Below, in pieces: positions 17,999 through 62,800 of a DNA stretch of 64,000 nucleotides. The notes beneath the pieces were generated by a model. The model did not search any database, was not told where the DNA came from, and saw only the letters and a program-made list of their open reading frames with translations. Source of the stretch: Podarcis vaucheri. Lineage: Eukaryota. The DNA is taken from the NCBI GenBank assembly GCA_965113315.1, contig OZ220364.1. One strand, given 5' to 3'. Positions within the stretch are counted from its first letter, which is position 1. Each line of letters opens with the position of its first letter. The translations under genes and the position numbers were made by a program.

Positions 17999-20900
17999 CT
18001 GCAACAGAGAAATGCAATTCATGTATTTGTTAGAATGTAGTATAGGGACACTGAGTGATCCCCAGGGTTCTTTTATCTTTACACCAGCATAATAAGCACT
18101 ATAGCAAACATTGATCATAACTGGCAGAGCTTCTCTTGCTAATATATCTGCATAATTAATCCACAGCCTTTAAACATTTGTTCCTCCTGGTTTGGACAAA
18201 AGTCCCATTAGCGAATGCTTCCAGAGTCCAAACTGTAAGATCTGAAATTAATCTGACTTCTGAATAAAACAAGTTACTTACAGGTTTTAAATCACTAAGC
18301 ACATAAAATTAGTCTTTTTTTCGTCTTCTTGAACTGGAGGAACTGTCATGTTTGTTTCTGGGTATGCTAGAGGTTATGGTGGACCAAGTCCCCTGCTAGT
18401 TCCAAAAGTGATCTGCTGACAAGCCCCATTGCCCCGTCACCATATTTCATGCCTTCTCCTCTTCCTCCTCCTCCTTCTCTATCCACAGGAGGAAGAGAAT
18501 TGCTGACATCTTAAGTTATTGCCCAGCAATTACCCTGGGTGTTCTCCAACTGTTTCTAGATAGCCTGAAAGCAGTAAGAGACCACATCAGGCTGTTTCTT
18601 GCTTAACAATATGTTAACTGTTTCCTCTCCTGTTATCTGTGGGGAAAGGATGATGGGAATGAAAGGTGCAAGAGACAGGCAGATCTTGCTCCTTCTGCAT
18701 CCTTTAGTCATAGTGTATTACTGAGTCTACACTATCATTGGCATTCTTGTACCTTGGCAGCTGTTACTTTGGCTCTCAGAGGGGAGAGAGTTGACCTCTC
18801 AACTGCCATCCCAGAAATGAGAGAAGCACCTTTCTCTCCTTCTTTCTGAGGAGGGAGCGAAAGAGAGAAGGGAGTTCCTCATCTTGTTATCTCCTACATT
18901 AATCTGAAATGTTTCCACAAAGACCCCTCATGGCACAACATTTATTCCTACAATCACACATCCCTTTCTGATTCCTTTTAATCATCATTACCAGAAATGA
19001 ATGGTATGTGTTCAACGAAAGGAAAGAAATGCACATTATTAAGCATCAATCATATAAATGATGTACTTAGAGGTCAGTAAGAAAAATGCAAGATAACTTC
19101 CCAGCCTTAAAATATTTTCACATGTATATAAAGAGAGGAAGCTGGTTCACACATGCAGTACTAAACACATTTACCACGGAGTATGCCCTGTGCTGTGAGA
19201 GTTTAACTTAAACACACAGCCTTGTCCCAATGTGAACCTCAAACTTGTGTGGCCTTCCTTAAAAAAAAAAAGAGAAAAAAGAACCAGGACCTAGTCCTTA
19301 TGTTGTGTACAAATTGTACAGCTGTGATGTGTGTGAATTCACCTGCAGTCAAGTTGGTTCTCCTTCTAGAAACAATTTTTTCAACAAGATGAACTCAAAG
19401 GATAAAAACGTTAAATGCTGCAAAAATGGTCTTACAAACCATATGAGTCTGATTTAAAAGTAATATTCAATGTTGAATCTTCATTTTTTAAAAAAGAAAA
19501 CATTTTCAAAACAGTTTTACCATTATGTCACATGGTCAGTGCACAATTCACCAGAGACTTACGTTGTTAAGCAGTATATAAATGGTTGAAGTAGATAAAT
19601 GATAAGTAAAAATAGTAGTAGGAGAAAAGCTACATGAAGGAGCAGTGCATAAAAATTAAAATTAAGGGTAAGTAAACTTGTTTTATTTCCTTTTAAAGAA
19701 TTGTTAATAGGTAATCTTTTAAAAATACACGCTTTACTGCTTAAACTAAAGAGCTGAAGATTTAAGATTGTAGCCACCGAGGCTGTCCTTTTAATACAGG
19801 ACTTCTGCCTGTGCAATGGGATTTCCTCTCCCTCTCTTGTCCCCATGCCTGTCATCTGCTCAGGAGGGTTGGGGGAACCCCCAGAACAGATTTGGGGACA
19901 GCGGCACATGGGAAGAAGATATTCCACTACACAGACAAAAGCCCTTGAGCTGAAAGAAGAACTTGGTTGGATGCAAGCCTTAATGGGTACATAAATGTAA
20001 GAAACAAAAAGCATGGCTACCTGAGCACAGGTCTGCATGAATGTAAATGACATTGGTGAGCTGTAGAAAAAGTTTCCACAAGCCACCAAGATCATTTACA
20101 TTCATGCAGACCTGTGCTCATGTAGCCGTTTTTGGTGTCTATTCTGTGTTGTTTGCCCCATATGGTTCCCAAAGCAAGCCCGTGGAGAGGGGAGATCTGA
20201 AATAGAGTATAAGATTCCAGCTGTACACCAGTTTCTCAGGACTTGAGGCAGTGTGGGCTTAGTAAAGAAAAACAGCTGAGCTTTCCCTATTACTTACAGA
20301 TTTCAGCTTAAACTGCCCATTAAGAAATTCACAGTTACTGGAATTATCATTTGGACTATCTAGGCCTGCATCCAGCTGTGGTGGTAGGTTACATATTGTT
20401 TACATCAAGGGGGCCAAAGTACTGTAAGAAGACCATGTAACTCAAAAACAGGAAAAATAAATGTTCAAAATATTTTTGAGGTTTTGGGCTACAGTAAAAA
20501 AACATCAGATCCATGGGCTGTCCAGTTGCTGGCTGAAAAGGAGTTCAGCATTCCTTTCCATTTTCAGCAGTGGGAAACCCAATACCCTCACAGTCTTCAG
20601 TCTGGAGACCAAAATAAAACAGTATCATGTCAACATATTAACATTTTGATCATGGCTCTCAAAAATTACCTATCTGCTAGATGTTAAGTGTCTTATTTTG
20701 GCCAATCAATTAAAATGCATAAATTTATAACTGCAACATTGCTGGCATTTTCATTCTAGTTAGGGTAGGCCTGGCAATATCTGCAGGTTGAAGCCCCACG
20801 TCTCTGGGAGAAAATTAGGTGGCAGTGGCAAGGGTAACTTGAGAAAGTTTGCATATACAAAGTCCTCAGCACTGCTCAGGAAAAAAGTAAGCAGCAAGCA

Positions 20901-32943: not shown

Positions 32944-33213
32944 TACAGATGGGTAGCCGTGTTGGTCTGCCATAGTCAAAATAAAAAAAGTTCCTTCCTG
33001 TAGCACCTTAAAGACCTTAATTCCTTCCGGTAGCACCTTAAAGACCTTAAAGACCAACTAAGTTAGTTCTTGGTATAAGCTTTCGTGTGCATGCACACTT
33101 CTTCAGATACACGGTGTGTATCTGAAGAATTGTGCATGCACACGAAAGCTTATACCAAGAACTAACTTAGTTGGTCTTTAAGGTGCTACAGGAAGGAATT
33201 TTTTTTTATTTTG
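32944..33213. mobile_element. Penelope-like (PLE) inverted terminal-repeat insertion forming a long hairpin
   Basis: Starts TACAGATGGGTAGCCGTGTTGGTCTG; inverted arms around loop GGT (33113-33115); 13-bp TSD ACATGAAACAAAT at 32931-32943 and 33214-33226. Confidence 0.85.
33073..33110 (-). ncRNA. Minimal type I hammerhead ribozyme motif (PLE-associated)
   Basis: Minus strand reads GUAU-CUGAAGA-A-GUGUGC-AU-GCACAC-GAAA-GC-UU-AUAC: core boxes, stem II, palindromic AGCU stem III, 4-bp stem I. A plus-strand copy at 33118-33155 has one stem II mismatch. Confidence 0.65.
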
Positions 33214-34071
33214 ACATGAAACAAATGCATGTTCCCAAAGCCCTCCTTGCAGGAAGTAACAGACCCAGAGACAGAAGTCAGCTCAGATCAAGAGTGCAAA
33301 CAATACATGGCCAATTAAAGCTATTTAAAACGTGATGAGGAAAAGGCATCATCAACTGAATGATTGTTCAAGAAAATGTAAACACGGAGATGCAAATAGA
33401 GTGTTGGTAGCATGTGAGAGAACTAATCACAAAGGCCCAGGGTAGACAAAACATTTAATCAGGGTTCATGCTAATTCTGCTCTCTTAATCCTGGTTTAGA
33501 ACTCAAGTTAACAGGAACACTGTGGTGCAGAGGTTGCCCACAAGGTGCTTGTTGAAGGTCTTAATAAATATCCCCTTTAAAAACCCCTCAGACTTTTTGC
33601 CTTTCTTGTTCAATTCTGTCTGCACGACTCCACCTCTCCTACACTGAGCATGCCCCCTTAAACATGCCCACATCTCACTGGGTGCCAAGTTGCTCTCTGT
33701 GAGCAAGTGTAGCGGTGGCTGATGTATGCACTTTCCCCCCTTTGATGGGGTGGCTACTGGGAGAGGGGAATGCCACACCATTCTGTCTCCTTTTCCTCTC
33801 TTTTTCCTTGGTAGCAAGGTATGTCATGCCCCCACTCCCGCAGTTATTTGGTATTATGCTACATCTCCACAGCAGCCATTTTGTGTTAGGGCCTGTCCTC
33901 CTGGCAGCCATTTTGTGACTGACATCCCTAGCACTTTCTCAAAATTCCAAGTGTGTCTACTTGCCCAAAAAAATTAGAGAACCTTTAGCTTGTCAAACTA
34001 AGCCCTGGAGCACACATACATTGAGATGATACCAGTGGAATTCATCTGTTGCCTACCTGAAACCCTCTATA

Positions 34072-35026: not shown

Positions 35027-35174
35027 NNNNNNNNNNNNNNNNNNNNNNNNNNNNNNNNNNNNNNNNNNNNNNNNNNNNNNNNNNNNNNNNNNNNNNNNNN
35101 NNNNNNNNNNNNNNNNNNNNNNNNNNNNNNNNNNNNNNNNNNNNNNNNNNNNNNNNNNNNNNNNNNNNNNNNNN
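35027..35174. other. N run (148 nt) that probably hides a ~120-nt TNRC6C Q-rich-region exon
   Basis: The orthologous segment between FLSPQ and AYQRLQ is absent elsewhere in 32853-36086. The minus-strand flank reads TTCACCTCTTAC immediately before the Ns, like an acceptor missing only its AG. Confidence 0.8.
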
Positions 35175-36233: not shown

Positions 36234-36365
36234 CTGTGGGATGACAAGGTTAGAAGATTTAAGTTTCACAATTTTATAGCTTGTGACAGTCACTGTAGAC
36301 TAGCTCAAGACATTAGCAAACAAAGGAGCTCTCATGCAGATTAGCAGCAGGTGAAGCGTTTAAAG

Positions 36366-36501
36366 CAGTGATGGCCAAACCTGGCCCTCCAGCTGTTTTG
36401 GGACTACAATTCCCATCATCCCTGACCACTGGTCCTGTTAGCAAGGGGTGATGGGAGTTGTAGTCCCAAAACACCTAGAGGACCAAGTTTGGCCACCACT
36501 G
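36366..36501. mobile_element. Palindromic hAT MITE
   Basis: CAGTGATGGCCAAAC...GTTTGGCCACCACTG; perfect 8-bp TSD GTTTAAAG at 36358-36365 and 36502-36509. Confidence 0.88.
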
Positions 36502-37329
36502 GTTTAAAGTACAGCAAATTGAAACATCAGTAGGCATGTACATCGGTAGGAGTTTGGTACAAATACATCAGTTGACCTAAATTACTCACGCAGCCAACCA
36601 TGTTCACTTTGTGGAAGCAGCTTCCTTTGGAAAGATGATGGTGCATACAAAACTGCACCTAATTCTGTCAAACCATGGCAAATGCCCCTAGAAGAAGGCT
36701 AGCAATGATGCCACTGAAAGTGCTGCAACAGCATGGGGATCTGCTATAGAAATGCAATGCAAGCAACTGGATGCAGATACAAATAGCCACCCTTAAAGGT
36801 AGTTGCATGTCTAAAGCAGGCTTAAATTTCGCTTTCAAAATGAGTCAATCATAATCTACATGTATGTGAATTAACTTTATCTAGGAAATGACTTTTTTCC
36901 TGGACATATAATGTAAAGCTTTCCCCTCTAGTTTCAGTAAAAAAAAATTAAAAATACGTTCACGTGTGGAATGTATGACATAAAAATATAGATTTGGGTA
37001 CTGGAATGCATTTGGGCATCCTGCTTGACTGTTGTTTGCTCTTCCTAATGGTCATGCCTGAGCAGAAAGGAGGCAGCTTCTTCATATTATGCTAAACTAT
37101 AGTTAAGTGTGATGTCCAAATGTGGCCAAAGTAAAAATGAATTACTATTATTCTAATAAGTTCGGGTCAACATTCCAGCTTATCCTTTTATCACCTTCGC
37201 TTTAAAAACAGAAACAAAAACCACTTGTACCATGTAGTTTCCTGATTATCAACTATGACACATAGTTCCAATGTTTGGGGCTTTTTAGCTCATGCAAAAG
37301 GCAACTAGGGCATGTGAAACAAATTACGT

Positions 37330-37893: not shown

Positions 37894-38550
37894 TATAAAT
37901 AATTTGGTCCATAGGTTTTAGAGCACAGCGTTGACATTATAGTGTAAGCAATGGCAAAAGGGCAAATATTTGGTTTCTCTAGTCAAGTGCTCTATCATCT
38001 AGACTTGGAAGCAGCATCAAATGTGTGGATTGGACAGTTAAAAATGAATACTGGTCCTGTTCCACCTAACAAGCACATACTGCAACCAAGAAAGCTTGAG
38101 GGTGGGGGAGAAGAGTGATATAAAGGCCCCAGTATAGGGAAACCTTTCAACGTGTATGAGCTGAGAAGGCAAAGAGGAAGTAAGCAAGAACGGCAAGAGC
38201 TATGAGCGGCAAGAAGTATGGTCTGTGTGAGGATGGGAAGGAGCGCCAGTGTGCAGGGACGCTGCGGGATGCACCAGAGGAGAAAAGGAACCAACAACAA
38301 AGACGGGAGGAACTGCAGGGAAGCAAGGGCAAGTTCTATAGCTAAGGACCTTTGGGAATCTTGGCGTGCAGTAACAACTGTCATTTGAAATACGCTTCGA
38401 TGACAAGTTGATTTTTGACTTTTCATTCACTTCTTTACGTTTGAGAAAAAGGAGCCTTAAAATGAAAAGCAAAGCCAAACAAATATCTTGCTGACTAGCA
38501 AGCGCAAGCGTGCCGACATTCAAATAACTGTCACTCGAAAGATACCTTAC

Positions 38551-38700
38551 CTGTCTAGAAGAATTCAAGTTTTGCATGCCCAGCCCTGAGGCAATCCCAC
38601 CCAGGGTCTGATTAGGGAGTGCACTGTTTGAAAGGGGGAGCTTCAGGCTTGGTGAAGGCAAAAATGGTGAAGTAGTGGGCTCTTCCACTAGGCCGCCATC
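38551..38700 (-). CDS. TNRC6C: TNRC6C exon (150 nt; 174 nt with alternative acceptor) [22 protein letters not shown]...NLNSSRQ
   Basis: TTTTTCAATCAG| acceptor, CAG|GTAAGG donor; phase 0-0. Confidence 0.91.
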
Positions 38701-40960
38701 CTGATTGAAAAAAGAAAGGGTGAGCTGTGTGCAGTGTCCAGGTACAGACAGTGCACAGAACAGTTTCCCATGGAAATATAAGTGGAACATGGATGAATAA
38801 AAGTTCAAAATATTGTTTAAAAAGGCATGAGGAATATATAATGAAAAGTATGGGGTGGAAGGGAGAAGAAAAAGAGAAACAGAATTTAGATACTGTTTGT
38901 CTTTACTTTTCGTTTTGCATTTTGTAAATCTATAACTGAACAGTATTCTGTAGTATGAAAAATGGCAGGCACAAAAAGGGATGCTTGTTGTAACATTTTA
39001 AAAATAGGAATGTTACAGGGCAACCTATCCCTTGCCTCAAGAGGAATGGCAAGAACACCCACACAAGACAGACTTCTGTCTGATCATTACTTCCATGCCC
39101 ACTTCATTTCCTCTCTTTTCTCTCAATTACAAAATAAAACAAAAGGGGAGGGGTTGGAGGACAAAAGGACATTCAATTCTTCTGAAAACCCTGAAAAGCC
39201 TGATTGCATTTTTGGAACACCGCCATAAACCAAAGTGGAAACAGACTTATGAAGAAAGTTAAAAATTACAGGAGTTTCAGAATGCTTTCTTCACTGATAC
39301 TTTGGTAATATACATAATCAACAATTCCAATTTTAGGTAGTGTTCTAAATTGCAAATCAGCTGTTCAGAAAACTTGTTCCATTAATCTTCTGTGTCATCT
39401 ACAGTTAGGTACATGACAGACATTAAACTATTTTTAAACATTAGCATAGTAATCAGTATGTAAACAAACATCTGCTATTGAATGCAGGTGTATAACAATT
39501 TATTTAAAAATCAGTTACCAATCTGAGGGATGAGGAAGACGACAAGGGGGCTGCTATGTTGACAGTGTCCTAGTCTGAATGCCATGTTTTAGAGCTAATT
39601 GGAATTTTCAAAGAATTCTGTATTGTCAACTGTAGCCCCAAGCATATTCCAGTTTATATGCATATAGGTTTCACTGGCATGAGTAGGATGTGAATAAGTG
39701 GGCTGAATTTTGTGTCTAATTCCTCAGCTTTGTCATAGCATAAACAAAAACCAAATTGTAACCCACCCAACCCAACCAATTTCCACTTAAAAAATTCTTC
39801 AAAGTATTGGAAGCAATAACATCCCATAAATTGGTGAGTTCATACGTAACACTTCTAATCCCTCAAGAAATAAGATTATCTCCTCCCTCCCTTGCATGCT
39901 CAGAGTCAATTAAGTTTTGAACCAGGCAAGCCATCACCTCAGTGTTGTCAAGCTGGTTTGTGCATATTCTCCAAACTATTACTGGAAATCACAACTTAAA
40001 GTTGGTTACCGGTTCTGGTTTGAAGGTCAGCCACAAACCATAGTTTGCCGATTTGGATGAAATGGCAAACAACAATTTGCCTAAAAGATGGGAAGGAGGA
40101 AATGTCATACTAAAGAGGAAGGGGCTTGCACAAAGCTTATTCCCAATCATCCTAACCATGGTTTGGAAGATTGGACACATTATATGTGAAACAATACAAA
40201 ATATCAAGAAGAAAACCTTACAGCAGAAGCTTTAGGTGGAGGAGGTTTGGGAAGTAATCTCATCTGTCTATGTCTGTCTAGGTGGCCATCTTCTACTGAC
40301 CTAATTCTAGGGGTATTCTGCTCTTCCCCCAAAAATGCTTTTTTCTGTGTATAGCTAGTGTCTTTGGGGTTTAATGCAGGATAAACACAGTGGGCCAGTG
40401 TGGACATAAGATAACTGTGATATAGTGTTACAAATTCCAACATTCATCAAGTGCCAGTTCAGAAACATCTGCTAATCACAATCCCTTGTTGTGTCATACT
40501 CGAGAAAACACTGTGCAAATGCTAGTTAGTGAGCAAGCTGGTATCATAAACTACAATTAGACCCTGGGTTTGTCTGAACTAACCAGAGTTCTTAGAGTCT
40601 GAACATAACATAATGGTTAATTTAACATCAAAAGAGAAAGTTTTCAATCAATCTTGTATGCAAGAGGAGAAAAGGTAGAGTGCATAACTTGTGCATGTAT
40701 TTCCCCCCCTTAAAATGTTAAGTGGTATATTAATTATGTACATAAACAAACATTGTACATGGTTCCTGGGGCTATTGGTTTCTCCCCTTCCTCATGGTTT
40801 CACCCATCCTACTGACAACCTCACAGTATAATAATACAGATGCCTTCTGAAAACTTCTTTATTTCCACAAGCCTACCTAGATGTATAATTTATTTGGGTA
40901 TATTTGTTTTAATTTTATCTGTGTTTTATTGATAGTTATCATATTATGTTCACTGCTTAG

Positions 40961-41000
<40 letters not shown>

Positions 41001-41245
41001 GCTTTCGTAGATTTTCACGGGTACAGGAATGCAGGTTTTGGTGTCTTCGGGTGTCTTCCCGTGTAAGAGTCGGGGTGTCTGGGCGACGTTTCGACGAGGT
41101 CTCACTCGTCATCTTCAGGCTGGTGCTTTCGGCTTCTTACAAGAAGCCGAAAGCACCAGCCTGAAGATGACGAGTGAGACCTCGTCGAAACGTCGCCCAG
41201 ACACCCCGACTCTTACACGGGAAGACACCCGAAGACACCAAAACC

Positions 41246-41250
<5 letters not shown>
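41001..41250. mobile_element. Penelope-like fold-back insertion in a (TA)n microsatellite
   Basis: Perfect inverted arms 41029-41138 and 41141-41250 with a 2-nt loop; (TA)n on both sides; PLE-type CTGAAGATG...CGAAACGTC motif. Confidence 0.8.
41159..41196 (+). ncRNA. Minimal hammerhead ribozyme motif (identical copy on minus strand at 41083-41120)
   Basis: GC-CUGAAGA-U-GACGAG-UGAGAC-CUCGUC-GAAA-C-GUC-GC: core boxes, 6-bp stem II, palindromic ACGU stem III, GUC triplet. Stem I has only 2 contiguous bp. Confidence 0.6.
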
Positions 41251-41288
<38 letters not shown>

Positions 41289-41562: not shown

Positions 41563-41698
41563 CAGGCATAGGCAGACTCGGCCCTCCAAATGTTTTTGAA
41601 CTACAACTCCCATCATCCCTAGCTAACAGGACCAGTGGTCAGGGATTATGGGAGTTGTAGTCCCAAAACATCTGGAGGGCCAAGTTTGCCTATGCCTG
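41563..41698. mobile_element. Palindromic hAT MITE
   Basis: CAGGCATAGGCA...TGCCTATGCCTG; TSD GATAAGAA / GACAAGAA. Decayed relatives near 11720-11835, 43715-43840, 44100-44236, 45735-45870 and 51935-52075. Confidence 0.85.
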
Positions 41699-45500: not shown

Positions 45501-46745
45501 CTGAGAAAATTAATTAAGAGGAAAAATGGAAAACTTTTAAACGAGAACACCCTACACCCAATTTAATTCAACAGGACTTACTTCTAGGTAACAGTGTATA
45601 GGATTGCAGTCTAAATTTCTTTATTTGTCATATTTATTGCAGGGAAAGAGAATGAAAATCCACATAAAGTCTTTCCATATAAATATTGCATGAATGTGAG
45701 ACGGCTTGGGTGCAATGTTAAACCATTGTATAGTGTTGGGTTAGGCAACATGGTGCTCTCCAGATGTTATTGGACTACAAGTCCCATTAACCCCAGCCAG
45801 TATGGCCAATGGCAGGGGATGATGGAGGTTGTAATCCAACAACATCTGGAGGGCACCACATTGCCTACCTCAGATATACTACTACATGCACGAGCTGTGG
45901 CATGTTTTGGGTTCACACCAGAGGGGGAACTATGTTTCTTCTTGTCAGAAAAGCAGTTTGGATGTAAAGAAAATATATTAGTCTATGGTTAAGCATGGCT
46001 GGGCATCACATCCACAAGTTGCAGCAAGTCTCCTCTTTTGTGCAAAAGTAGAAAAAGTAGGGAACGTCTGTTTTTGATTTTAAATTAACCAGTTCCCTGG
46101 TTAGTTTAGACTTGTTAGCTCAAATAAGCCAGGATCAAACAATGGTTTCTGATCCTGGCTTGTTCACTAACTAGAAATTTTGCCACCTAGAATTCCTTAA
46201 GTGTGGGTGCAAGGAGGAACTCAGGTTACTTTAAAGCTGGAAGTGGAGGCTTTCAGGTTTACACAAATCTTATACAATCAGCTGAGAAAGATTCCTACTT
46301 TCTACCTTATTTGTTGGACAGCAGAGAAATAGCTTATCACACTTGTTAGCAAGCAGACATGCATTATGACCTGTAAACCTATTGTGTCCCTTATTTGTCA
46401 GAACTCATTCTGACTATGTGGTCTTTGCATAAATGTTGAAATACTGCAAAAATCAGATCTGTTTGTGTCTGTAAAGAACACGTGATTGACATCTACAGCA
46501 GGGTGCAAAGGAATCTGTTAGGCAGGGCCATAGCATATCAACTGATTCTCTAGTCCATTCCAGCTTTCCAACACCATTTGAACAAGACAAGTGATGGTAA
46601 CTACAGGATAATAATCTTATTGTAGTGCTTTTTGAAAATGATGACTTTCATACTTTCATAAAACAATTTGATAAAGTATATTAAAAAAAGTGCACGAACC
46701 ATCTCATCTTACTGGTTTTTATAACCCAGCTGTGCTTAGTCTTAC

Positions 46746-46915
46746 CTTTTGAAGTCCTTTCTTTGGAGCATTTCCCCAGGAGCTACAAGAGGAATTACTC
46801 TCTTGTGAAGCAGTATTATTCCACATATCTCCTTCTTCATCTTCCCACTGACTTGTACTGAGATTTACTTCATCTCCACCACCGCCCCAGCCTTCTTGCA
46901 TAGAAGATTTAGAAG
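46746..46915 (-). CDS. TNRC6C: TNRC6C exon (170 nt) ASKSMQEGWGG...WGNAPKKGLQK
   Basis: CCTACAG| acceptor, AAG|GTAAGA donor; phase 1-0. Confidence 0.93.
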
Positions 46916-47533
46916 CTGTAGGAGGAATGGAACATTTCAGTTGACCTTCCTATACTTTAAAATCAATGGGCTTCGTTCGCATGTATCAGTCAAGACTTAG
47001 CACAAACATGTGGGATCTCGCTGAGAAGACAGCAACCACTTTGCTCCTCTCTCCAGCACTGCTGCACCACTGTGAACCAAATCATGGATTGGCTTAGTGG
47101 CTTATTCATCTGAACCTAGGCCTTTGATGTGTCTCATTCCAGACAAATCATGAATGAAAAGTTTTTGCTCAGAGTGAGAAAAACCACGAGCCTGGGTTCA
47201 GGAAACACACTAGGCCAAATCACAAGAAGCTGACAGCAGGAGTAATGTGGCCACTAGTTCCTCTCTAGGACCCCAGACGCTCAGGTCACACTAAGCATTA
47301 TGTGCGAGTCAATATATTTGGAAATTTTGTCGAGCTTGTTCTGTATTTTACTATTTGGAGAGCTTATGTCTGAATTAATAAAAAGAGCATAGGTTATACA
47401 TGTTGGCCTGTTGTTGGTTGTACAAGTGATCAAGCGGAATACCTGTTTAAGCTAAAAAAAAGTTATCTATATGAAAGCAGAGCTATAATTCTTCTTGCCA
47501 ACTCAGCCAAGACAAATCAACACACACACTTAC

Positions 47534-50800: not shown

Positions 50801-51494
50801 ACAAAGAAAGAGGGACCAGCTTCCCTGGGTTCTCTTTAAATTCAATAATAATGATTAATCACTACCAATCTGTAATGTATAAGCCATTTTGTTAAATACA
50901 TTGTGTTTTGAGCCACACAATGTTATGTAAATTATTACGCACAACAAGGGAGTTCATGCCCTGGCAAATTACATGTAATTACATGAAAACAATAACATGT
51001 GTTAAGACACCCATAGTTTGTAAAGTTCTCAAGAGATCAAATCAAGTGCAAAAAATTGCAGTGTTGAATATGACGGCAGTTAGTTAGAAAAATCTTTAAA
51101 CAGTAACTTGGGTATTGCTGATGTTTGAATCCCTGAAACAATTCAAACTCCACTGGGGGTTTCAGAACGGTTATGTATATTTGCATTTCTTAAGTAACAC
51201 ACTCTCTTTCACACACTACCTTCAATCCAATGAAGCATATTACTAATGATATTTTATAGGCTCACAGGATCAGATAGCTGGGTCTCTTTAGAAGTACTGC
51301 ATTGGAGGGTGATAGTGGGAGATCTCCACTGGGGATGAATTTCAGCATGATATTTCTTCTAATTTTTTTAATACCCCAGTCATTTGTGTGTCATCCCTCA
51401 AAATAAACTGACTCACTACTGGTAGAAGGCATTCCTTGATGACCCAGACAAAGAACTGTTCCATAACATTAACCTGCTTTTCCCAACATTAAGG

Positions 51495-51858
51495 TAAAGG
51501 TAAAGGTACCCCTGCCTGTACGGGCCAGTCGTGTCCGACTCTAGGGTTGTGCGCCCATCTCACTTAAGAGGCCGGGGGCCCGCGCTGTCCGGAGACACTT
51601 CCGGGTCACGTAGCCAGCGTGACGAAGCTGCTCTGGCAAGCCGGCACCAGCGCAGCACACGGAAACGCCGTTTACCTTCCCGCTATAAAGCGGTACCTAT
51701 TTATCTACTTGCACTTTAGGGGTGCTTTCGAACTGCTAGGTGGGCAGGAGCTGGGACCGCAGACGGGAGCTCACCCTGCCGCGGGGATTCGAACCGCCGA
51801 CCATGCGATCGGCAAGCCCTAGGCGCTGAGGATTTACCCACAGCGCCACCCGCGTCCC
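51495..51858 (-). mobile_element. Full-length young Sauria SINE
   Basis: GGGACGCGGGTGGCGCTGTGG head, B box, ACCTTT tail; 15-bp TSD TTCCCAACATTAAGG at 51480-51494 and 51860-51874. Confidence 0.93.
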
Positions 51859-52795
51859 GTTCCCAACATTAAGGCAGACTTATTTTTAATAGGGCTACAG
51901 CTGTCTGGTTGATGATAGGGCAACATACTTTATTTCAGCAGAAGCCTACATGTTGCCTTCCAGGTGTTGCTGGACTACAACTCCCATCATCCCTGACACT
52001 GGCCATGCTGTTTGTGGCTGATGGGAATTCTGAGTCCAAAAACATATGGAAGGCCATATGTTAGCCACCACTGCTTTATTTCATTGTAGCTAGAAAGTCA
52101 ACAAGTAACTGATTTATTGGAATTCAACAGTCCCAATTTTAAGAATCCTGGAATTGTAGAGTTGGAAGGGACTCCTGAGGGTCATCTAGTCTCAACTAAA
52201 GCATCCATGACAGATGGGCATCCAACCTCTGCTTAAAAACCTCCAAGGAAGGAGTGCCCACTAGCTATGAATTCCCCTCATGACCTGGGAGAAGCAACAA
52301 TGTTTACACTTTAGATACCTATGACTAAAATAAAGGTATGTGGGTGCTTTTGGATCTAGATGTATAACTAAAGGTGGATAATATACTTCATAATTTTGTT
52401 TACATCCCACGGATACACTGTAATTGAATTGTAAGCAGATATAATAGAAGGGGAAAGCTCATCCAGCAAGGGGCAGCGAGAAGTAATTTGGCACTCACCT
52501 CTCACTTTGTTATGTCTGCACTACTGCTGAAAATAAGCCAGAGAAATGGCTTTCTTATCTTACAGTACCTCACCAGGACAACATCCTTACTAGAGGAACA
52601 CTTCAAAGCACAGAGGAAACAGAGGACAGACAAAGGGAATAAATCATCGGGTAGACAAAAACATCAGTAAATGAAGGGTTTTGTGCTGTCATCTTATTTG
52701 CTGGAACTGTTTATGTTGTCTGTCCAGCCCAGCTAGGATAGAAAGCCAAAGTGGCATTAATCCAGGTTTTTACTTTTCTATGCACATATAGCTCA

Positions 52796-53159
52796 GGGAC
52801 GCGGGTGGCGCTGTGGGTAAAACCTCAGTGCCTAGGACTTGCCGATCGTATGGTCGGCAGTTCGAATCCCCGCGGCGCGGTGAGCTCCCGTCTTTCGGCC
52901 CCAGCTCCTGCCCACCTAGCAGTTCGAAAGCACCCCTAAGTGCAAGTAGATAAATAGGTACCGCTTTATAGCGGGAAGGTAACGGCGTTTCCGTGCGCTG
53001 TGCTGGTGCTGGCTCGCCAGAGCAGCTTCGTCACACTGGCCACGTGACCCGGAAGTGTCTCCGGACAGCGCTGGCTCCCAGCCTCTTAAGTGACATGAGC
53101 ACACAACCCTAGAGTCGGACATGACTGGCCCGTACGGGCAGGGGTACCTTTACCTTTAC
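52796..53159 (+). mobile_element. Full-length young Sauria SINE
   Basis: Same head, core and tail; TSD GCACATATAG at 52782-52791 and 53160-53169. Confidence 0.93.
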
Positions 53160-56100: not shown

Positions 56101-57261
56101 CAATAGGTGGCCATGAGTACTGCAGCGACAACAGCAGGCAGAGCAAGTGAGCAGAGCAGACAGGCTGGCAGCACGAGTGAGCGAGCTGGCAGAGCAAAAC
56201 AGCAGGTGGGTTACCCAGGAAGGCCTTCCCATGTTGTCTGCAGCCACTGCCACCTGGGAAGCCTGGGGTTTGAACGAGCAGGCAGGCCGTCCAGCAGAGT
56301 GAGCATGCACCCTGGCAGACCTTCATGTGCTCCCTGTCTTTGCTGCTGCTGCCCAATGTTTGCCAAAAACTCCCCCCTCTCCTCACAACTTGCCTCAAAC
56401 CACTGCGGTGTGAAGCAAAGGGGAGAAAGACTTTCTCCTCTTCATTCCCCTGTTGTCTGCGAGTGGCAGCAGGATCTTGGGATGGGGCAAGCTGTGAGGG
56501 TATGGGGGTGTTTTGGGAGATAGGGATCTGCAACTGGGTTGGCAACAGTTAGACAGATTAAATGAGGTGTGAGGGGATGGGGAGCTTTGAGTGAAAGAAG
56601 GGGATTGGCAAAGGGATTGGGGGAGATGGCAAGCAATGTGAGCCACAGCAACGCTCCCTAATGAAGATGATATTGTCAGATATGTCCTATGAAGGGATAG
56701 TGATCTGACAAGCATGTGTAGATGAACTGACAACCATTATGTCCCATAGAATTGCCAGATTATGGCTTTAAACACACCTACTTGGCTATGTATATTTTAA
56801 AACAAGGTATTAGTATCACTAGCCAATTACCAAAATCATTTCATAATCTGATAATTCTTTATACCTTTTCGATTTCTCTCTCCATCCTTAGTAAAACAAT
56901 TATTATCATAACCACAATTTCAAAAGAAAGATGATCCACAGACTGATCTAATGGCATGCTGTCTGCATCTTCTATCCTTTTGCGTATCATTTTTCATATT
57001 TTCATCTGGTCACCCTAACTTAGCCTCTTGTGTCTGCCCTGTCTGTGTGCTGTAATTCAGAATGGAAAATGAAATGATAAATTTTAATAGCAATGAGTAT
57101 TTTGGACACCTTTTTATACCTTATTCGTATTAAATACAAACTTATCCTTAAGGCAGGAAGTATAGCTTGAATATAAACAAATAATGCCTACATCACACTT
57201 ATTAAAGTTTCTTTCCAAAAGGTAGCATACTTATTTTGAGAAAACAAAAGCTGTATCATAC

Positions 57262-59850
57262 CTGGACCAAGCAGCGGGGACCGGTTTGACTGGGCACTTG
57301 ACTGGTGCGGTGGCTGAGGTTCAGCCATGTTTGCGTTGATAATGGTGGTGCTAGTGGTGGCGGTTGTGGTACTGCTCTGGATTACAGGATTGTTTCTATC
57401 CCACATGTTTACAGTCTTGTTGTTATTGTAATTTGGGTCACCCCAAGCTGAGGTACCATCATCAATCTCCATCTTGCGCCGAATGGATGGTGGAGAGGGC
57501 TCTTCCCACCCCGTTGCTTCACTACTATCTTTCTGTTTGGCTGGCACTGGTCCACCAACCCATCCTGATCCAGTCTGTTTAACAGAAGCAGCTCCTCCCC
57601 AATTACTCACGTTGTTGTCCTGGGATTTAGAAGCCCAATTCTGTTGAGGACCAGGTTTTAAAGATTCCCCCCAGCTCGTACCTGTATTAGCCTTGCTGTT
57701 TGTGCCATTTCCCCATCCAGTGGTCCCAGAACGCGTAGTATCATTCCAGCCAGACCCTGCTCTATTGTCAGCATCCCATCCAGAACCATTCTTTTTCCCA
57801 TCTCCCAAGTGTCCAGGGACAGATGAGGAATCAACCCAATCTCCACCCCCTGAAGTCCAGCCTGGATTCGATTTCTGTCCATCTCCCCAGTTTTGAGATT
57901 TGGGTTTCTGAGGTTCACCCCAAGTAGGCGACTTGTCCTCCTGATTTGTGGTCCCACTCCAAGTGTGGCCACTTTTGGCAGCAGCAGCATTATTGACAGC
58001 AGTAGAACTTGCTGGCTCTCCCCATCCCCCTGGGCCATTTGGCGCTTTGTTATTGTTGTCGCCCCAACCTGTATTAGTTGGAACTGTTGCAGGTGGAGAG
58101 CTGACCCACCCAGATACTGAAGAGGTATTTGTACTGTTCATGATGGACCCATCATTCTTGCCCCCCGAGTTTGAAGGCTGAGTAGCTGCACAACCCCAGG
58201 CCTCCGTTCCATTGTCATTCTTTCGTTCAGACCTTGGGGATTCTTCAAATTCCCAGGCAGTGTTTTGTTTTACAGGAGTCTGTCCCCATCCAGTGTTGGA
58301 CAGAACCCTTGGGTCAAGGTCATTCCTTGGCAACTGGACTTGTCCTTGGTCTAGCATTCCCTTGTCTCTTCTTCGAGCCTCTCCAGTTCCTTCCCTCCCA
58401 GTACTGCCTTCATTCTGACTCCCATTGCTATCATTACTGCCTTCACTACCTGTGTTGCCAGATGCTGCAGCTTTGGCCCAAGAGTTTATTTGTTCATTGC
58501 CCTGCTGCATGGCAGGATTCTGGCTGGTAACACTAGAGCTATCCCACCCTGTTGATCCTTTCCCATTGATGTCATTACTGGAATGCTGGTTTGGGGGCTT
58601 GCTCCATTCACCATTAACGCCATTACTGGTGCTGCGGCTTGGGTGGCCCCAAGCACCAGAATGCATATTACCAACACCACTGTTGCCACTGCCCCTGCCC
58701 CATGCTAAGATCCCAGGACCAGCAGGAGGCCCCGAATCCCATGCACTTGTTCCGTTCCCTTCCTTTTGTACAGCACTGCTGGATCCATTTTGTTTAGCAC
58801 TTAATGCTGAGTTCACAGTGTCTCCATTCCCCTGACTGAACCCAGAATTGCTGTTTCCTGTGGCAGGATTACCTGGGGATATCCCCCACACTGAATTGCC
58901 CATTCCTTCACCACTTCCCCCACTGACTTGAGAAACTGATGTCCCATTAGCACCAGGAAGGCTTTGCAGGTGGGGCGGGATGATGGCCCCCATGCCAACA
59001 GCCATGCCCCAGTTCGGCAGTCCATTTGTCTGCATTGCATTGATAGGGTTTGGTGAAGAGTTCATNNNNNNNNNNNNNNNNNNNNNNNNNNNNNNNNNNN
59101 NNNNNNNNNNNNNNNNNNNNNNNNNNNNNNNNNNNNNNNNNNNNNNNNNNNNNNNNNNNNNNNNNNNNNNNNNNNNNNNNNNNNNNNNNNNNNNNNNNNN
59201 NNNNNTCCCATTCTGGTTGCCCATGTTCTGACCTATGGCACTGACTGGACTGCAAATACTGGAAGGGTTGCCTGCTCCCACAGTTCCTTCATGTCCGAGT
59301 ACAGGCCAGGCAGCTGGATTGGCATTTGGATTAAGGTTAAGATTAATGCCAGCATTTGAGTTGGAAGCACCCCAGCAATTTTGACTTCTACCATCTCCAA
59401 TCATGTTGTCCATCTTTCCATCCCCACCACTGGCAGAGCAATGAGCTAAGCCAGAGTTGGAACCTGTGGCAACACCCCACACTCTGGCTGAATTTCCATT
59501 ACCATTTGCTCCACCAGCTCCAAGGGCACTCTGGTTAGAAGTGCTTTGGATGAGTGCTCCATTGGTGCCATTATTGCCATTGGGTTTCTTTGTATGTCCA
59601 GTGAAGTTGCCTTGGGCACTCCCTGTAGCCATGCTACTGTTCTCTGAGCCACAGTTGGAGGCAGAGTCAGTGTCTGTAGTACATTCTGAGGCAGATTCAG
59701 TCTCAGTTCCTGTAATGGAAGGCCACGCTTCCTTGTCAGTCCTGTCTATTATCACTTTATCCCAGCTGCAATTGGCTTCACTTCGGAAAGTGGGCTGCTG
59801 TCCCCAGTGAGTATTCTCATAATGGTCTCCCAATCCGCTGTGACCAAGGT
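57262..59850 (-). CDS. TNRC6C: TNRC6C large exon (2589 nt, phase 1-1): GW/WG-repeat Argonaute-binding domain
   Basis: Translation contains MATGSAQGNFTGHTKK, DLDPRVLSNTGWGQTPVKQNTAW and MEIDDGTSAWGDP, characteristic of TNRC6C. Acceptor TTTCAG|AC at 59851-59852, donor CAG|GTATGA at 57260-57261. Internal N run 59066-59205 keeps frame. Confidence 0.96.
59066..59205. other. N run (140 nt) inside the large TNRC6C exon
   Basis: Reading frame is preserved across the Ns (47 unknown codons). Confidence 0.95.
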
Positions 59851-62800
59851 CTGAAAAATTAAACATGATGTAAATTAGTCTGCTATCCAATGACCCAGAT
59901 ACATCAGTTGAACTCTGGCTTGATTGTTATGTTTACATTCTTTAAGACTCTTCCTCCCTCCTCTATTGTCTAGCTTATGGGTAGGGGTTCCCAACTTTCA
60001 CTAAGCCCTTGGAGAAGCACGGCTTGTGAATACAAACAAATTCTTCAATAAGTATAATAATGCATTTTGAATTCTAGGTTCTGAAAAAACAAGTGTGTTC
60101 AGTGCTAATACACAAAGGATTTGCATGCAGACAATAGTACTATTTCTCTTTTATTAGGTTGCACTAATAGGGTCAGATATAATAAGCAATACTTTGGGGC
60201 ATGCAATTTCCAATATTTTCCTATATGCCACATACATTTTAAGCTGAACTATTAAATGGGAACTAGAAATGAAAGAAAAAATCTACAAAACCAATCAAGC
60301 GTATTCTGTGGTCAACGAACAGTTATTCATGCCTTGTTAAATTCAGAAACAGAGATAAAAACTTCACTGTGAGGACTGATTTCCAATATTAAAATACTTC
60401 TCAAACATATGAGTTGTTATCACTTTCAATTGTATGTTTTCACTGCATGAAATGAAATCAAAGAAATAGTTTAGAAAGTATTATCACTGTAAACTAAGAC
60501 TTTGATGACACGCCTGGTACTCGTTGGCATACATACTATCACTCTAGCACAGAAGGTGGAGCCACACTTAGTGCTGGTGCACAGGACTGGGTCTCTTCAA
60601 ACATACTAGTCCACTTCACAGCAAAGGACAGGCCTAGGCTCTTAGACCAAGGTCATAGATTAGAAATCACAAGGTATAATAGAGAGAACCGCTTGTAAAT
60701 AGCTGCAGGATTGAGGCCTTTCATTCATTTCATATATATGAACAATCAAAAATATGGGTGCTTTAAAAAAAAAGGTAACTATGACGGTAGTTAATAATGA
60801 AGATCACTTACATTTTGTACTATAGCACTGATAGCTATTAAATATAAATTGAATGTTCTGTACTTGTCATATATGATTTGGGACTTTAAAATGATACTTG
60901 ATTGACAGGCCAATCTCCCTCTACAAATAAGCTGGATCTTCTCAAACAGCTGTTACACTGTGCCTCGTCCAGATATAAGTCAGCCCCTAAACTATTAATG
61001 CTGTAGGTTTCGACAATTTTAGTTTTTTAAGACTGATGTGACAAAATTCCACAATTCTAAATTGGGGCAACAATAACTTCCCTGTCTGAAATAAAAAGTA
61101 ATCAATACCATGACCTCAATGAACATTTTAATGTAACTCCAAGATCTGATACCATAATCAGTATTTTAAATGATCAAAACATATCAGAAAGCAATCTCAA
61201 AATCAGAGTGAAAATGTAACCTTATGAAGAAAAACATGGACCTTCACTATAACTGTGCATCCTGGAACAAAAAAACTCCATTCAAATTCAATGGGAAATG
61301 GTTAAGCTTGTATGTTTACCAACATGAACAGACACTGACTGATTTGGTCAGCACTTAGATCTGAGGTCAGAACTAATCTCAAAACTAGTACAAATTTGAA
61401 AGCATCCAAAAAGCCAGCTTCTTTCTATTTGTTTCTTTCATTCTAGTAGCTGAAATACTTGTTTACGCAGTCAGGAATTCAAAAAGCACAAACATTTAAG
61501 TGGGAATCTGTTCTGCAAGTTTGCTTTCACAACAACACTGACTCCATAAATGCTGAAGCTGTCAAGACTCTCCCAGAAAGGCATATGCAAATGTGAGGGT
61601 TAAGAGATGAGAACGCTAAATAAAACAGCTTTATTTAGAGACAAAATCCAAAATTAGGCAATGCATGTGGAAAAGCCTATTACTCTTTTAATTTTCTTCA
61701 CTACGGTATGCTACAAAGTATGTTCCGTCTGATGTGGGAACCTTTAATGCGTTCAGAAAAAGAGCTGAGCAGCGTAAAAAAGAGCATTCTTCATTATTAG
61801 ATAGTGAGTACTCCATGAAACACTAACACTCCAGAACCAAACAGCAGTAGATAATGACAAATAACAACTTCATTTTTTTGCCCAGCGCAGCATATCTTTA
61901 GCAAGCAGCTCTTTCTCTGAGGACGCCATTTTATCAAACCTGAAAGGCAGCCAAAAGCTTAGGACGCTGTGCTGCTGCTGCTGTCTCTGAAACATTATGT
62001 AATAAACTGATTTAGCAGAAGCAGATGCCATTTGCCCCCTTTCCCCCCCCTTGCTGCTCTATAGGGGCCAACGAGTAATGAAATACCTGAGAAAAGGTGC
62101 TGCCCAACCATCCTAGGAGACGCTACATTGTGTGCAGAGCTGTCTCCCCTCCTGCATCTAGGTTCGCCTGGGCTCTCGGCTTCAATATGTCGGCTGTGTA
62201 CAGAGTGAGCCTCATCCTGTAGAGCTGCCAAGAAAATCGCTCAGTGCAAGTGTGCGCCCAGACAACCTGCAAGCTTACTCAGGCCCTAGCTGTGCTGGCT
62301 TTGGAAATGCCCTTTCCACACAGGGAGACTCCTACCCCCACCTCTAGCAGCACACAGCCCCCTTAACTCTGGGTAAGGTATCAACAGATGAGGATTTTAA
62401 AGCTTTGATTATCTAATTGCAGCTGACACTAAACCGATCTTCCTTCCTCTTTAAATTCTTTCAACTGTCACAAAACATTTTCACTTCGAGACCTAGCCAC
62501 AATTAGCACGGTGGCTGCTTTTCTTCTGGTTTTTGAAAGTCAGCCAAAAGAACAGCCGCATATTGCCGATTGGCTGCATGCAAATACATTCCTGCCTCCT
62601 TCATGTTTCCATCCTCTTCTTTCCTCCTCTAAACAGCAGTGCTACACACACTTGGCATACCAGCACTAACTACAATACTGGGGACAAACCTTATATAGAA
62701 CCTGGCAAGCCTCCAGGTGCTTAATTACTTCTCTGCCTTTATCGCGAAAGCTGAAAACATGCAAGTCTATTAAAAATCACAGCTTCTATTTGTGAGCGTA

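Follow-up and report, generated by a model that had tools for sequence, protein, structure and literature searches.

A probable head-to-head pair of truncated Penelope/Poseidon-type end pieces in a TNRC6 intron of Podarcis vaucheri, predicted to form a 110-bp RNA hairpin

The 64,000-nt stretch of Podarcis vaucheri DNA analysed here (contig OZ220364.1 of assembly GCA_965113315.1; "the window") carries a perfect palindrome in an intron of a TNRC6 gene, and we conclude with considerable confidence that it consists of two 5'-truncated end pieces, joined head to head, of a Penelope/Poseidon-type retroelement of great abundance, likely a single recent insertion into a TA repeat, whose RNA is predicted to fold into a 110-bp hairpin that keeps the ribozyme motif it contains inactive. 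The features on which this reading is built are listed in Table 1.

Table 1. Features of the insertion and of the host gene (window positions)
Feature	Position	Strand	Basis
Compound microsatellite (AC)9(AT)11, left part of the presumed target	40961–41000	none	Sequence
28-nt PLE "tail" (ORF nt +85 to +112), between two presumed RT starts	41001–41028	−	Unpaired; prolongs the arm's reading frame; PAc RT start at +111–118 (PMC11167929)
First 37 codons of the PLE ORF; ATG overlaps A9, the unpaired U and G10.1 of the ribozyme core	41002–41112	−	Open frame through the tail; 68% to the P0003 N-terminus; 21/37 to P0005 residues 1–37
Left arm, 5'-truncated pLTR/ORF-start copy, sense on minus, continuous with the tail	41029–41138	−	Arm comparison; family ends at 41029 beside (TA)n in 4/4 runs
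Mirror hammerhead motif, the copy in sense within the host pre-mRNA	41083–41120	−	Sequence scan, folding
Spacer AC, 2 nt, the two bases that precede the right arm in the parent	41139–41140	+	Loose ends behind 41138 and junction row 41056->41139
Right arm, 5'-truncated copy, sense on plus, tail-less end at ORF nt +84	41141–41250	+	Arm comparison, geometry
Minimal type I hammerhead motif: 2-bp stem I, CUGAAGA 41161–41167, unpaired U, 6-bp stem II 41169–41174/41181–41186, GAAA 41187–41190, palindromic ACGU, predicted cut after C41194	41159–41196	+	Sequence scan, folding; features as in PMC4209133
(AT)18, right part of the presumed target; target-site duplication unreadable	41251–41286	none	Sequence
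Frame of the host exon identified next downstream (GW182 M domain)	38203–38997	−	Pfam M_domain, E = 2 × 10^-9
Exon-like, GW-rich frame assigned to this gene, upstream of the insertion	46722–46949	−	Composition and position

The two arms are exact reverse complements (110/110 positions) on either side of the AC spacer, just as the original prediction of mismatch-free 110-bp arms and a 2-nt loop had it. The right copy is longer than the left by these 2 nt, and the joint between the copies shows no microhomology. The many undecayed CpGs remarked on earlier are also present: the 250-nt insertion contains 20 CpG dinucleotides, an observed/expected ratio of 1.08 compared with 0.25 across the window. 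The 28-nt extension at the left, described earlier as unpaired, indeed has no complementary partner and occurs on one side only. Flanking (TA)n had been claimed on both sides; this holds on the right for (AT)18, but the left flank is instead compound, (AC)9 followed by (AT)11. The 5' truncation, inverted copy and one-sided tail (28 nt) that are typical of PLEs are thus all present, as is a pLTR with a hammerhead motif in it and an overlap with the start of the ORF.

The perfection of the arms, together with the fact that no single contig spans the whole stretch, could also be produced by a fold-back artefact of sequencing or assembly, but we think this extremely improbable. The mirrored flanks that are the signature of such an artefact were absent when 200 nt on each side were compared in mirror orientation (27% ungapped identity), the tail is on one side only, the tail-less end is the natural end of the family in 4/4 runs, the spacer bases are bases of the parent element, and sequence beyond the loop is covered by contigs of run X1, possibly the source sample.

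The family data behind these last points are contigs and reads that lie on window positions 40560–41160 in four of 24 sequencing runs (DNA runs X1, X7 and X3 and RNA run X23; 24 of 1176 pieces listed, and all loose ends but 76 rows). X1 and X7 carry the same species label, and the designation of the runs as DNA is a guess. Depth on the unique flank is 42 in X1, 21 in X7 and 8 in X3, and over this flank X1 is identical to the window and X7 has 6 deviating letters and 5 gaps over 393; the unique-flank contigs of all three runs end at 40952, before the microsatellite, the repeat being skipped. Summed depth on the arm is 10^5–10^6, with some contigs reaching what looks like a ceiling of 25,000 (~590-fold the X1 flank), and since depth is not copy number we state the abundance of the family only as at least hundreds of copies. 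Among the rows listed, the loose ends before 41029 are (TA)n in 4/4 runs; the tail-less end in TA is a family trait, and the microsatellite targeting proposed at the outset is reflected in microsatellite-adjacent ends across the family. Such a bias has been described for Neptune, Naiad and Chlamys elements (PMC8557442), whereas PAc, the Poseidon element of Anolis carolinensis, is described only as inserting into AT-rich DNA. On the other side of the arm, the loose ends behind 41138 continue into one common upstream sequence in 4/4 runs (6, 5 and 2 contigs and 74/164 RNA reads, among the rows listed).

Whether the same or variable loop junctions occur among the copies had been put forward as the way to recognise an amplifying unit, and the family contigs gave variable junctions. 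Other inversion junctions in X1 lie behind 41120 and at 41056, the latter joined to 9 bases upstream of 41139, so that X1 holds at least three, and simple truncations into (TA)n were found at 41054, 41112, 41121 and 41124 in X7 and X3. Depth past the loop (41148–41160) is 635 in X1, 0 in X7, 2.5 in X3 and 0 in X23. The X1 value, 92 of which comes from another junction, is 13–15 times the flank depth and ~0.1% of the arm depth. A joint row for the window's junction was seen in none of the four runs among the rows listed, and that junction was not seen in X7, the second sample with the same species label, where contigs drop rare variants. The window's junction is therefore rare, and a handful of X1 copies may have the same or a nearby one.

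These values bear on the idea, contained in the original prediction, that the 250-nt hairpin and tail form a distinct non-autonomous unit with a fixed loop that is amplified by the Poseidon enzyme. In its favour, the X1 depth past the loop is 13–15 times the flank depth, and the two contigs with A>G clusters on the antisense arm (below) suggest that hairpin RNA is sometimes reverse-transcribed whole. Against such a unit stand the very small share of the arm depth that continues past the loop in every run, the continuation of most records into the parent's upstream sequence, the several X1 inversion junctions and the missing joint row, and we regard it as improbable. A short, PLE-derived, non-coding element with a type I hammerhead also resembles the non-LTR retrozymes (bioRxiv 10.64898/2026.07.22.740005), but we reject that identity, since in the available part of that source a retrozyme is a head-to-tail tandem with at least two same-sense hammerheads and the present pair is head-to-head with one per strand.

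It is similarly improbable that the insertion was once a longer hairpin and afterwards lost its centre by deletion at the tip of a cruciform, so that the junction would not be a product of transposition. Most family records extend past 41138, and the DNA hairpin is predicted to be stable (−156 kcal/mol). Processing of hairpin tips fits a near-symmetric junction without microhomology. Strongly asymmetric junctions and plain truncations also occur in the family, however, as 5' truncation at insertion predicts, and the unrelated hairpin family at 33 kb has the same short hairpin-plus-tail form.

That second PLE-type hairpin (window 32945–33215) is built on the same plan, with a 69-bp near-perfect core, CUGAAGA/GAAA boxes on both strands, a one-sided left extension of ~30 nt and a 30-bp tandem duplication in one arm. 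BLASTN found no similarity between it and the present insertion, in agreement with the earlier statement that the two are separate families.

The copy in the window can be placed within its family by diagnostic bases. Its bases C41071 and G41081 are the prevailing ones in X1 and hardly occur in X7 and X3, and the copy therefore belongs to a subfamily whose spread came after the split of these lineages; T41082 is present in most of the X1 depth and absent from the window, so the copy is not of the youngest layer. The insertion had been called very recent. The diagnostic bases point to a young, lineage-specific subfamily, but the perfect arms alone do not show a very recent age, as they bound the age only at ~4–14 Myr at assumed rates of 1–3 × 10^-9. 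X1 and X7, in spite of their common species label, differ almost completely at 41071, 41081 and 41082, which implies separate large bursts in each lineage.

The PLE origin that had been proposed is supported by the ORF start, the pLTR geometry and a chain of protein matches that leads to RT and GIY-YIG domains. The 37-residue peptide encoded by the arm and tail (P0001) had two matches among 1.84 × 10^9 proteins, both N-terminal; P0003 was matched over its residues 1–37 with E = 5 × 10^-4. P0003 continues as a PLE N-terminal region and is 65% identical to a rattlesnake protein, P0005, and P0005 as query gave 471 longer proteins, nearly all with RVT_1 among the 120 listed. RVT_1 was confirmed in 4/4 homologues scanned and GIY-YIG was below the cut-off in 2/4; a C-terminal two-Cys GIY-YIG-like core was found in 100/120 listed homologues. 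The CX2-5CxxC linker of the Neptune/Nematis type occurred in 0/100 homologues with a recognisable core, a count made on homologues and not on the direct parent. This three-step chain starts from a 37-residue match near the limit of significance, and it supports a Penelope/Poseidon assignment. As for the parent with RT and GIY-YIG domains that was to be sought, these domains occur in homologues reached through P0003 and P0005, but no full-length ORF is tied to the arm at the DNA level. When the 45-residue frame was used as query in a search for longer proteins, four candidates were returned and none scored. The Podarcis gene model P0023 was considered as the parent and rejected, as its N-terminus does not match the peptide of the arm and it is only a relative; P0004 is a database gene call that passes from a related stub directly into a (CA)n-type repeat. 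The closest named proteins of the chain also point to a squamate reptile as host. A name for the family may already exist, in Repbase or elsewhere.

In PAc (Frangieh et al. 2024, PMC11167929) the ORF begins at stem II of the ribozyme and the cut falls 26 bp behind the start codon; RT starts at +111–118, the tail is the stretch between two such starts, and there is cleavage and extension of both target strands. The present family matches this geometry: its ATG is at the start of stem II, the predicted cut is 28 nt from the A of the ATG, the arm ends at +84 and the tail at +112, the targets are AT-rich and the ORFs are homologous. The N-terminus of the Anolis protein P0019 (836 aa) equals, when compared by eye, the peptide encoded by the RNA printed in Fig. 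S1 of the PAc paper; P0019 aligned with the end of the tail in register, and P0003 is 39% identical to it over 146 aa. It is nevertheless a family distinct from PAc: its first 32 residues were not aligned to P0019 by BLASTP, and its ends adjoin true (TA)n runs.

When the window was scanned in full, on both strands, for the hammerhead core with stem II, only two sites were found, +41161 and −41118, and the original prediction of a hammerhead on each strand agrees with these two mirror motifs. The conserved core, a stem II with G10.1-C11.1 and the palindromic ACGU are all present in the motif, and stem I, at 2 bp, is short of the 4–5 bp expected of a minimal type I hammerhead. The minimal PLE hammerheads of Cervera and De la Pena (2014, PMC4209133) share the unpaired base between positions 9 and 10.1, the G10.1-C11.1 pair, the palindromic 15.2–16.2 and the lack of helix III; they differ in their usual stem I of 4–5 bp, the 2-bp version being known from Penelope of D. 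virilis, and here the two cores are only ~40 nt apart, whereas the opposite-strand pairs reported there are 100–700 bp apart. Low activity and the need for a dimer are reported for these hammerheads. That both strands carry a hammerhead follows from the geometry of the inversion, and such pairs were already in print in that paper. No Rfam hammerhead model was matched around the element among 37 matches at E ≤ 10 (all of them weak generic hairpin or microsatellite matches), and the window gave 0 matches at the gathering level.

The motif is not likely to fold in a transcript of the palindrome. In the predicted structure the RNA hairpin has −240 kcal/mol as against −184 kcal/mol with the core held open, so that opening the core would cost ~56 kcal/mol, and single arms fold no better than shuffled sequences (z −0.8 to −1.1). 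Minimal hammerheads of this form, which have a stem I of 2 bp and lack helix III, depend on a same-sense dimer and show weak activity in vitro (PMC4209133). In a head-to-head palindrome transcribed in either direction, the sense hammerhead comes after its perfect complement and has no same-sense partner, and we therefore infer that it does not cleave. No pile-up of RNA read ends at the predicted cut site was seen in X23, where the fragmentation of RNA-seq makes pile-up uninformative. The hammerhead is most likely inert at this locus; in PAc the ribozyme requires protein and is dispensable for insertion (PMC11167929).

On the simplest reading, insertion was one event that could have proceeded as follows. 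The enzyme of the element would cut both strands of an AT-rich target, as suggested by the biochemistry of PAc; reverse transcription would begin at internal positions of the RNA, +112 for one strand and +84 for the second; and both cDNAs would stop early, 2 nt apart, and be joined head to head, each templating the second strand of the other. We somewhat favour this twin priming on both cut strands with head-to-head joining. Fold-back self-priming of a single cDNA, as argued by Arkhipova et al. (PMC3846280), is a possible though less likely route: near-symmetric junctions speak for it, and two cDNAs that stop 2 nt apart would be unexpected if they were independent, but the strongly asymmetric junctions in the family favour twin priming. 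Inverted 5'-truncated copies and one-sided tails have been described (PMC8557442, PMC8969392), and the inverted pLTR insertions of Arkhipova et al. (2013, PMC3846280) and Craig et al. (2021, PMC8557442) resemble the present one in their head-to-head arrangement, junction palindrome, one-sided tail of ~30 nt, pLTR and tail with the ORF start, and target duplications that are unreadable in microsatellites. The present insertion differs in having no internal body and in its 28-nt tail, slightly below the quoted 30–40 nt. The available portions of the PAc paper (PMC11167929) contain no passage on inverted or palindromic insertions.

The insertion is hosted by a minus-strand TNRC6/GW182 gene, identified by Pfam matches to M_domain and TNRC6-PABC_bdg in 3/5 frames scanned, with TNRC6 clusters as Atlas leads. 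The insertion lies between the two host exon frames of Table 1 and is therefore intronic. The introns of this gene hold many potential sources of double-stranded RNA. An older hairpin with 71-nt arms (80% complementary) and a 3-nt loop lies at 19999–20143 and has no relative in the window. Inverted-repeat elements of ~150 bp at 36359–36508 and 41563–41698 belong to one MITE-like family with relatives near 43.7, 44.1, 45.8 and 52.0 kb, one of these elements being 280 bp away from the palindrome. A SINE-like repeat is present at 51494–53159 as two inverted copies ~1 kb apart that are 92–98% complementary in parts. Runs of N occupy 35027–35174 and 59066–59205, the second inside a large TNRC6 coding exon (frame 57191–59926, minus).

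In the host pre-mRNA the hairpin would be a substrate for ADAR and would be removed with the intron. The double-stranded RNA foreseen in the original prediction is predicted by folding at the locus itself, and strand-specific editing is seen in family RNA of a relative. No RNA run was listed for the locus itself, which says nothing about its expression. X23 is raw RNA with another species label (~12% of the run was used, with no DNA of the same individual), and as no read lies on the unique flank of the locus its results are at the level of the family. Changed places in X23 comprise 10 A>G, 16 T>C and 7 others. Position 41046 (fixed), position 40867 (flank repeat) and two further rows were left out of the strand tally, in which T>C at 14 sites was found in 97/875 of first-mate-plus pairs versus 10/522, and A>G at 9 sites in 3/579 of first-mate-plus pairs versus 112/379 (the cells are not independent). 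In all, 21/23 sites lean as A-to-I editing predicts, and a 5' G precedes 9/12 unedited adenosines as against 8/23. Editing occurs in both arms and includes the sense-strand core positions A6 (4/64), A14 (14/70) and A15.1 (13/70). Family RNA in this relative is edited strand-specifically. This agrees with reports that Penelope is the most edited repeat in lizard brain, with over 40,000 sites (Porath et al. 2017, PMC5625713), and is among the most edited in X. tropicalis (PMC10636886); the available parts of these two papers name no structural cause for the editing of Penelope and mention neither core edits nor edited copies fixed in DNA.

Two genomic contigs that match window positions 41037–41138 display A>G clusters on one strand, the antisense arm. 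In X1 record 2 these make up 5/6 differences and affect 5/9 adenosines, and in X7 record 24 they make up 5/5 differences and affect 5/6 adenosines, with an additional G at 41081 where other X7 contigs have A. The records, seen in part, were matched between tables by depth and distance to the end. Under a simple null over 107 divergent contigs, the corrected chance of such clusters is ~1 × 10^-3 for X1 record 2 and ~2 × 10^-4 for X7 record 24; X1 record 4 (5/9 T>C) was rejected as an edited copy, being not significant after correction. X7 record 24 ends at 41078 in AT-rich unique DNA, outside the usual family ends, as would a hairpin RNA copied from the tail and cut off in the antisense arm. 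These observations suggest that edited double-stranded RNA was written back into the genome. Tentatively, ADAR may hyper-edit hairpin transcripts of the family, which the enzyme of the element would then put back whole into the genome; genomic copies made in this way would have A>G clusters in their antisense arm. A host transcript retrocopied by a LINE is also a possible source of the two contigs. Our literature search, which mostly did not extend to subscription papers, found nothing on edited RNA fixed in genomic Penelope copies or on this family, and the available part of PMC2873906 treats APOBEC footprints in DNA and A-to-G changes in RNA.

As an insertion, the palindrome is ordinary for genomes with Penelope elements, and it agrees neatly with the two internal starts measured for PAc, one per end. 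If many insertions are such ready-made hairpins, their structure could explain why no other repeat of lizards is edited as much as Penelope. If edited hairpins are indeed re-inserted, the fossil edits would record which RNA strand templated each insertion, would allow a genome-wide test of whether antisense or hairpin RNA serves Penelope elements as template, and would point to a secondary non-autonomous hairpin cycle in which the ribozyme core is rewritten by a host editor. A>G-clustered copies, if confirmed, would thus bear on how telomerase-related elements make inverted insertions.
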